Origin: Escherichia coli
GTDB taxonomy: Bacteria; Pseudomonadota; Gammaproteobacteria; Enterobacterales; Enterobacteriaceae
DNA length: 64,000 bases
Strand: one strand, 5' to 3'
Assembly: GCF_011045215.1 (NCBI RefSeq)
Contig: NZ_CP049201.1
Of this stretch, positions 14,071-14,289 are shown in pieces. A program made the translations under genes and the position numbers. Positions within the stretch are counted from its first letter, which is position 1. Every line of letters begins with the position of its first letter. The notes beneath the pieces were generated by a model that saw nothing but the letters and a program-made list of their open reading frames with translations, was not told the DNA's origin and ran no database searches.

Positions 14071-14289
14071 TTAACGTTCAATAATTTGCGAAACATCATC
14101 ACGGTTAATTTGCATCGCGTTACCTTGCTGATCGTGATAACTCACCAGCCCGGTATCATCATCAATTTCAGGTTTTCCATCGGTCAAAATCATACGGCCA
14201 TCTTTGGTCGCCATGACGTAATCACTGGAACACCCGGAAACAGCAAACGCCAGTCCGACTGCAGAAATTATTACTGCCCATTTTTTCAT
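14071..14289 (-). CDS. ygdR: small lipoprotein (DUF903)
   Basis: 72-aa ORF with lipobox (AVSGC); paralogue of ygdI elsewhere in the window. Confidence 0.9.

Follow-up and report, generated by a model that had tools for sequence, protein, structure and literature searches.

YgdI and YgdR are the name-giving members of a family of small lipoproteins, DUF903 (Pfam PF06004; NCBIfam NF033216, 'YgdI/YgdR family lipoprotein'), with solved structures available since 2007. Mature YgdR is identical in sequence to the chains of PDB 2JN0 and 3FIF, and the YgdR structures include both crystal and NMR work. Six more family members have solved structures (5CAI, 2RA2, 2RD1, 3BDU, 2RB6 and 2K57) under generic labels ('putative lipoprotein', for example). 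Of these, 2RA2 and 5CAI are close relatives of YgdI and represent the YgdI type separately from YgdR.

YgdI is listed as a 'verified lipoprotein' in a gene table (PMC8767339), and both YgdI and YgdR were detected in the proteome of O157:H7 (PMC3210124). One study tracked His-tagged YgdI, as an outer-membrane lipoprotein, in fractions of the outer membrane and of vesicles, and found more of it packaged into vesicles after peroxide or oxidative stress, as with other untethered lipoproteins (PMC8284480). When cells were treated with a LolCDE inhibitor, ygdI was upregulated 25-53 fold and ygdR 8-12 fold; the table of that study describes ygdI as a 'lipoprotein induced by RpoS', annotates ygdR as Rcs-induced and also includes mliC, ivy and osmY (PMC5105897). 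Expression of ygdI is tightly sigma-S dependent in Salmonella (PMC5437024) and Cpx-dependent in Citrobacter, where it was downregulated in a cpxRA mutant (PMC6153362). The ygdI promoter is among the strong promoters in Serratia (PMC9382025), and in E. coli MG1655 a ygdI::yfp fusion has provided a fluorescent reporter locus (PMC13162491). Both genes are described in the literature as responding to acid shock and to a cathelicidin. A title search over 8 million papers found neither ygdI nor ygdR in the title of any of them, and no functional study assigning a role to either protein was found in the literature search. A first-pass annotation of the DNA studied here had called the function of both proteins unknown; this holds for the mechanism but leaves out the structures, the tracking of YgdI to the outer membrane and vesicles, and the evidence for control by sigma-S, Rcs and Cpx that are on record. 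The role of this conserved, strongly stress-induced family, part of the E. coli 'y-ome', is the question that the pair poses; knowing it would inform outer-membrane stress biology and possibly the study of small cryptic plasmids.

The ygdR and ygdI genes and their family

The open reading frames of YgdR and YgdI were present in the window (the whole stretch of 64,000 nucleotides of Escherichia coli DNA that was analysed) at the positions and on the strands given in the first-pass annotation (Table 1). They lie 28.2 kb apart on opposite strands, in agreement with the 28 kb reported there. Pfam, NF033216 and the RefSeq annotation concurred on the family and the gene names: DUF903 scored 85.9 bits in YgdR and 82.7 bits in YgdI (cut-off 27), and NF033216 scored 105.9 and 111.7 bits, respectively (cut-off 42), over profile positions 1-71 of 71. 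Compared with the family as described, nothing of substance differed in the window pair except the substitution N58S in YgdI. RefSeq labels the first gene 'ygdR: lipoprotein YgdR', flanked by tas and ygdQ, and its region was present in 5423 of 5426 complete E. coli genomes when counted at 95% identity or more. The ygdI region, between csdA and gcvA, was found in 5425 of the 5426.

Table 1. Features located in the window, in order of position.
Feature	Position	Strand	Description
OmrA/OmrB (two copies)	9174-9255, 9371-9458		above Rfam gathering score
Terminator-like hairpin + U-run	14042-14066	-	5 nt past ygdR stop; consensus scan
ygdR CDS	14071-14289	-	72 aa + stop; ORF list, Pfam/NCBIfam profiles, RefSeq
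YgdR Cys20 codon	14230-14232	-	lipobox V-S-G-C; signal peptide residues 1-19, mature DUF903 domain residues 20-72
Second conserved ygdR upstream block	~14316-14336		-10-like TATTAT inside
Conserved block upstream of ygdR	14354-14373	-	TTTAAGATTTTCCTGCTTTC; four-genus alignment
ygdQ	14427-15140		TerC-family
tRNA-Met (CAT)	37960-38036	-	single gene, between amiC and mltA
ES036 sRNA	39464-39506		above Rfam gathering score
Alternative in-frame ygdI ATG	42275	+	would give 76 aa; RefSeq start is that of the 75-aa form
ygdI CDS	42278-42505	+	75 aa + stop; ORF list, Pfam/NCBIfam profiles, RefSeq
YgdI Cys20 codon	42335-42337	+	lipobox L-S-A-C
YgdI Ser58 codon	42449-42451	+	AGC
IS200C, complete	42522-43232	-	711 bp; 16 nt past ygdI stop
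IS200C right-end hairpin	42531-42549	+	CCTCCGGC-ATA-GCCGGAGG, then TTTTT
tnpA	42631-43089	-	Y1 transposase, 152 aa; Y1_Tnp 130.7 bits, NF033573 transpos_IS200 147.7 bits
IS200C left-end hairpin + 5'UTR RNA STnc490	43099-43222	-	Rfam, 146 bits
gcvB sRNA gene, intact	43233-43438	-	Rfam GcvB (RF00022) 199 bits (gathering 42), model positions 1-204 of 204
gcvA	43567	+	divergent from gcvB
CsrB sRNA	61619-61978		above Rfam gathering score

The proposed paralogy was borne out. In BLASTP, YgdR and YgdI were identical at 42 of 72 residues (58%) with 75% positives, one gap and E=1e-30. The pairwise identity was also above background: the mature domains gave a BLOSUM62 local score of 163, compared with 24.5 +/- 4.9 for shuffled sequences (2000 shuffles, maximum 48). 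The mature domains alone thus scored z=28, showing that the similarity is real and not due to the signal peptides. A lipobox signal peptide was common to both, as the annotation had stated, reading VSG-C20 in YgdR and LSA-C20 in YgdI. The shared core motifs that it quoted were right in content but not in spacing; the strings actually shared are DGR-I--DGKP, DTG--SY and QINR-DV.

At the DNA level, ygdR and ygdI were only 60% identical, indicating that the duplication is old. The YgdR orthologues of Salmonella, Enterobacter, Kosakonia, Yokenella and Phytobacter were 88-94% identical to the YgdR of the window, with 89-94% for the first three genera, and the mutH-(ygdQ)-ygdR-tas synteny was kept in Salmonella, Enterobacter and Kosakonia. 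Identity was 58% between the paralogues versus approximately 90% between orthologues, showing that the duplication predates these genera. In E. coli both are core genes, and as paralogues they are ancient. As annotated and structurally characterised core genes, the pair is already known, and the first-pass observation of it was correct but ordinary. An origin by segmental duplication was considered and rejected; the neighbours (tas/ygdQ and csdA/gcvB) are unrelated and DNA identity is 60%, so that any larger duplicated segment has left no trace. In E. coli and Salmonella, ygdQ separates mutH from ygdR; the loci examined in Enterobacter and Kosakonia had no ygdQ there.

DUF903 was found in 282 clusters at E<=1e-3 among 1.84 billion cluster representatives, indicating that the family is small. 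All of its well-formed members have 68-80 residues and a lipobox; the named ones come from Aeromonas, Halopseudomonas, Erwinia, Kluyvera, Rouxiella, Pseudocitrobacter and the beta-proteobacterium Achromobacter. No conserved gene partner was common to seven unrelated homologue contexts (including Aeromonas, Pseudocitrobacter, Achromobacter, Erwinia, Kluyvera and Halopseudomonas), and gene neighbourhood was discarded as a functional clue, the neighbours of the seven homologues sharing nothing. Tandem chromosomal DUF903 pairs were observed in Halopseudomonas (L016, at 4543-4761 and 5001-5219, and L017), where they adjoin a cluster of a TonB-dependent receptor, FecR and an ECF sigma factor. Pseudocitrobacter had an extra DUF903 paralogue between yaaU and kefF.

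The YgdI translation begins MKKTAAIISACMLTFALSACSGSNYVMHTNDG in the ORF list and has Ser at residue 58, where the reference allele has Asn. Over the 292-bp stretch compared, the closest match was 99.7% identical, equal to one mismatch. Because the best match among 5425 genomes still carried this mismatch, the N58S allele appears, on sequence comparison, to be private to this strain.

The hairpin past the ygdR stop had an RNA fold energy of -15.5 kcal/mol (z=-3.9). On the other side of the gene, the ygdR upstream regions of E. coli, Salmonella, Enterobacter and Kosakonia shared invariant T,T,A,G,A,T..C..C,T,T in the 20-nt block listed in Table 1. This block and the second one nearer to the gene are a candidate promoter or regulator site. 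The farther block may resemble an RcsB box, which we treat as a lead.

Fold, predicted membrane anchoring and proposed role

Both precursors, as read from their sequences, have a basic MKK N-terminus, a hydrophobic core, a lipobox and Ser at position +2. By the established sorting rule, Ser at +2 predicts Lol export to the outer membrane. The lipobox Cys was invariant in 45 diverse homologues, and the residue after it was mostly Ser, Ala, Gly or Thr. Structure prediction had been suggested as a check on the pair. When AlphaFold was run on mature YgdR with the 45-sequence alignment, the model had a pLDDT of 94.6 and six strands, of which the first begins at residue 4 of the mature protein. The fold is a single-domain, six-stranded Sm/SH3-like small beta-barrel, as in the solved family structures. 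With only three residues between the lipidated Cys and this strand, there is practically no linker, and the barrel would rest right at the surface of the membrane.

A close fold class outside the family is that of the Sm/Hfq proteins (SCOP b.38.1), to which mature YgdR shows fold resemblance rather than membership, with approximately 10% sequence identity. Sm/Hfq proteins have an N-terminal alpha-helix and a five-stranded bent sheet; the YgdR model had no helix and six strands. In addition, Sm/Hfq proteins are cytoplasmic, whereas YgdR and YgdI are exported and lipid-anchored and have an extra C-terminal strand, and RNA binding is implausible in the periplasm. The mature positions conserved in the family were C1, G12, K20-P21, D24, T27-G28, Y32, D34, G37, I42, V47 and E52, and most of them (G12, K20-P21, D24, T27-G28, D34 and G37) are turn formers. 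No catalytic pattern was found among the family-wide conserved residues of the 45-homologue alignment. Most of the conserved residues may serve only to shape the turns of the fold and so be silent on any binding surface.

The explanation that we favour, and regard as moderately probable when taken whole, is that these ancient paralogues are non-enzymatic, stress-induced outer-membrane binding modules split mainly by regulation. Its descriptive part, that they are paralogous outer-membrane DUF903 lipoproteins with an Sm-like barrel, is held with high confidence; its mechanistic part, a non-enzymatic binding module apposed to the membrane, is evenly poised between being right and wrong. Each gene would produce a Sec-exported precursor of approximately 8 kDa, whose lipobox Cys20 would be processed by Lgt, LspA and Lnt. 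Because residue +2 is Ser, the Lol system would then route both proteins to the outer membrane. There, the mature protein (53-56 residues) would form one rigid barrel at the periplasmic face. It would be made in response to envelope or general stress, and its target, to be bound or shielded, would be some other component of the envelope. YgdI and YgdR may instead be exposed on the cell surface. The paralogues would have diverged mainly in regulation, with ygdI under sigma-S (and also Cpx in Citrobacter) and ygdR under Rcs, reported after cell-wall damage; we infer this split from transcriptome tables rather than from promoter dissection.

Non-enzymatic action is most likely, since there was no catalytic motif, cofactor site or conserved gene partner. 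The binding mechanism itself rests on exclusion and analogy because the literature documents no binding partner, ligand or mutant phenotype of YgdI or YgdR. A TraDIS result counts against it: insertions in ygdI gave a growth advantage under trimethoprim and sulfamethoxazole (PMC8767339), which an envelope adaptor role does not predict. However, ygdI abuts gcvB and gcvA, regulators of glycine cleavage and one-carbon metabolism, so the advantage may be a polar effect on these adjacent genes and not a function of YgdI.

DUF903 genes on plasmids and alternative readings

When mature YgdR was used in tblastn against 72,556 plasmids, DUF903 genes were found on 360 records, 259 of them mobilizable. 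More than half of the evenly sampled matches (14 of 25) were plasmids of 2.5-5.3 kb. Many of the carriers were tiny, mobilizable ColE1-type plasmids, from Enterobacter, Klebsiella, Salmonella and Serratia, with one or two tandem, mutually divergent DUF903 genes as nearly the sole cargo besides rop/mob. One plasmid-borne pair has the protein accessions WP_000719360.1 and WP_044704865.1. The 2,494-bp Enterobacter plasmid NZ_CP083852.1 had nothing but rop, an ORF of 63 aa and one YgdI/YgdR lipoprotein gene, and ColRNAI plasmids of 4,448 bp and 5,321 bp (Salmonella, Enterobacter) had mob genes and two different tandem DUF903 genes. In NZ_CP038598.1 (4448 bp) the tandem genes were at 2094-2321 and 2343-2576; NZ_CP056744.1 was a further small DUF903-carrying plasmid. 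The 4,448-bp type has been noted in Klebsiella without functional comment (10.1101/2023.01.12.523727). Hypothetical proteins of 122 aa and 63 aa on the small plasmids matched no Pfam family and gave no clue. That DUF903 is the near-sole cargo of small plasmids suggests that it confers a selectable benefit which can travel with them, for example immunity or exclusion.

Such a benefit would fit DUF903 lipoproteins that act as protective decoys, inhibitors or exclusion factors by binding an envelope-attacking agent or its receptor. Such agents, coming from outside, might be lysozyme-type hydrolases, type VI effectors, colicins or phages with a receptor in the outer membrane. MliC/PliC, Ivy and the phage lipoproteins Llp and Cor are protective proteins that act by such binding. 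By analogy, YgdR and YgdI resemble them in being small lipoprotein or periplasmic proteins, in being co-induced with mliC and ivy and in being carried by mobile elements; no sequence or structural similarity to these proteins was detected. We consider this protective role unlikely. Besides the approximately 360 plasmid records (259 mobilizable, often with near-sole cargo), it is favoured by the readiness with which the family duplicates, as seen in tandem chromosomal pairs and extra paralogues, by the co-induction, under a block of Lol, of ygdI and ygdR with mliC and ivy, which encode lysozyme inhibitors (PMC5105897), and by the correlation of a DUF903 cluster with type VI secretion in Serratia (PMC12165300). 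However, in the contexts examined the DUF903 genes had no toxin, effector or phage gene next to them, prophage-like genes being nearby at a single locus (L013). Searches of PADLOC, PHROGs and BFVD gave no support either: YgdR and YgdI matched no known defence family in PADLOC, and the BFVD fold search gave no match below E=1e-3. The PHROGs phage families gave weak matches only and were rejected; as these start at YgdI residue 1, they were taken to be driven by the signal peptide. A wider version of the protective role, in which DUF903 proteins are portable orphan immunity or exclusion proteins and the chromosomal YgdI and YgdR are their domesticated, stress-regulated version, is rather improbable. 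Such proteins would bind a receptor in the outer membrane or an incoming protein that attacks the envelope; if true, this would account for DUF903 being near-only cargo of small ColE1-type plasmids.

It is also quite improbable that the proteins lack a specific partner and, as abundant small lipoproteins, alter outer-membrane packing or vesicle formation in bulk under stress. The vesicle packaging of YgdI, which rises after oxidative stress (PMC8284480), and the high stationary-phase expression, with a strong ygdI promoter in Serratia (PMC9382025), are consistent with bulk action. By contrast, conservation was strong across gamma- and beta-proteobacteria and included the surface-exposed polar residues K20, D24, T27, Y32 and D34, and the fact that nearly all genomes keep both paralogues also speaks for a specific interaction.

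A membrane-anchored Sm-like ring, in which six to eight barrels would join edge to edge as a hexamer to octamer, be held on the outer membrane by their lipids and serve as a platform or binding site for a polymer such as a glycan or extracellular nucleic acid, is highly improbable: the linked-hexamer AlphaFold construct reached a pTM of only 0.26 with domain confidence down to approximately 55-80 (a weak test, with a 10-sequence alignment and artificial Gly/Ser linkers), the Sm N-terminal helix is absent and a sixth, C-terminal strand present in the YgdR model, and some structure entries hold 3, 2 or 1 chains. The family crystals contain 8, 6, 6, 7, 3 and 2 chains, and chain counts are not oligomeric states.

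The IS200C copy at the gcvB terminator

The first-pass annotation had placed an IS200 immediately downstream of ygdI. A complete IS200C element was indeed found there, and its position is better described as precisely at the 3' end of the gcvB terminator and specific to this strain. From end to end the element matched annotated IS200C copies at 99.7% identity, in a comparison that found roughly 10,000 IS200 copies, and its termini were identical in three other copies. Like IS200 of the IS200/IS605 family, it has a length of 711 bp, a single Y1 transposase, a left-end hairpin with STnc490 and no target duplication; it differs from known IS200C copies only in its location at the end of the gcvB terminator. 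Compared with an empty site (L001), which reads GGT/AAAAAAAAGC, the insertion was precise and without target duplication, lying between ...CGCAAGGT and AAAAAAAAGCACCGC... of the gcvB terminator. The element has the orientation of gcvB, which is convergent with ygdI, and its left end abuts the last U of the terminator U-tract. No IS200 was found at this site in 5426 complete E. coli genomes; none of them covered 80% of a query spanning the insertion, indicating that the insertion is strain-specific. It makes a useful marker of the strain.

In all four IS200C copies compared, the transposase-proximal end (...TTCTGTGCAC, + orientation) abutted the U-tract of an intrinsic-terminator hairpin. These were the copy in the window (junction region 43195-43270, at gcvB) and three at unrelated terminators (L019, L020 and L021, positions 821-901). 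The pattern, from four copies only, suggests that IS200C targets the ends of terminators.

On the + strand, the right-end hairpin and its TTTTT tract form a canonical intrinsic terminator for the incoming ygdI transcript, according to the terminator scan and RNA fold. In strains without this IS, ygdI transcription meets the gcvB terminator from the opposite side. The right-end terminator of IS200C may insulate gcvB from convergent ygdI transcription, and the element amounts to a small natural experiment in which ygdI and the gene of the global regulator GcvB are transcribed towards each other.

Several further RNA genes were located in the window (Table 1). Between amiC and mltA there was a single tRNA-Met gene. 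E. coli K-12 has three tandem initiator tRNA genes, metZWV, at this position, so the copy number may be reduced in this strain.
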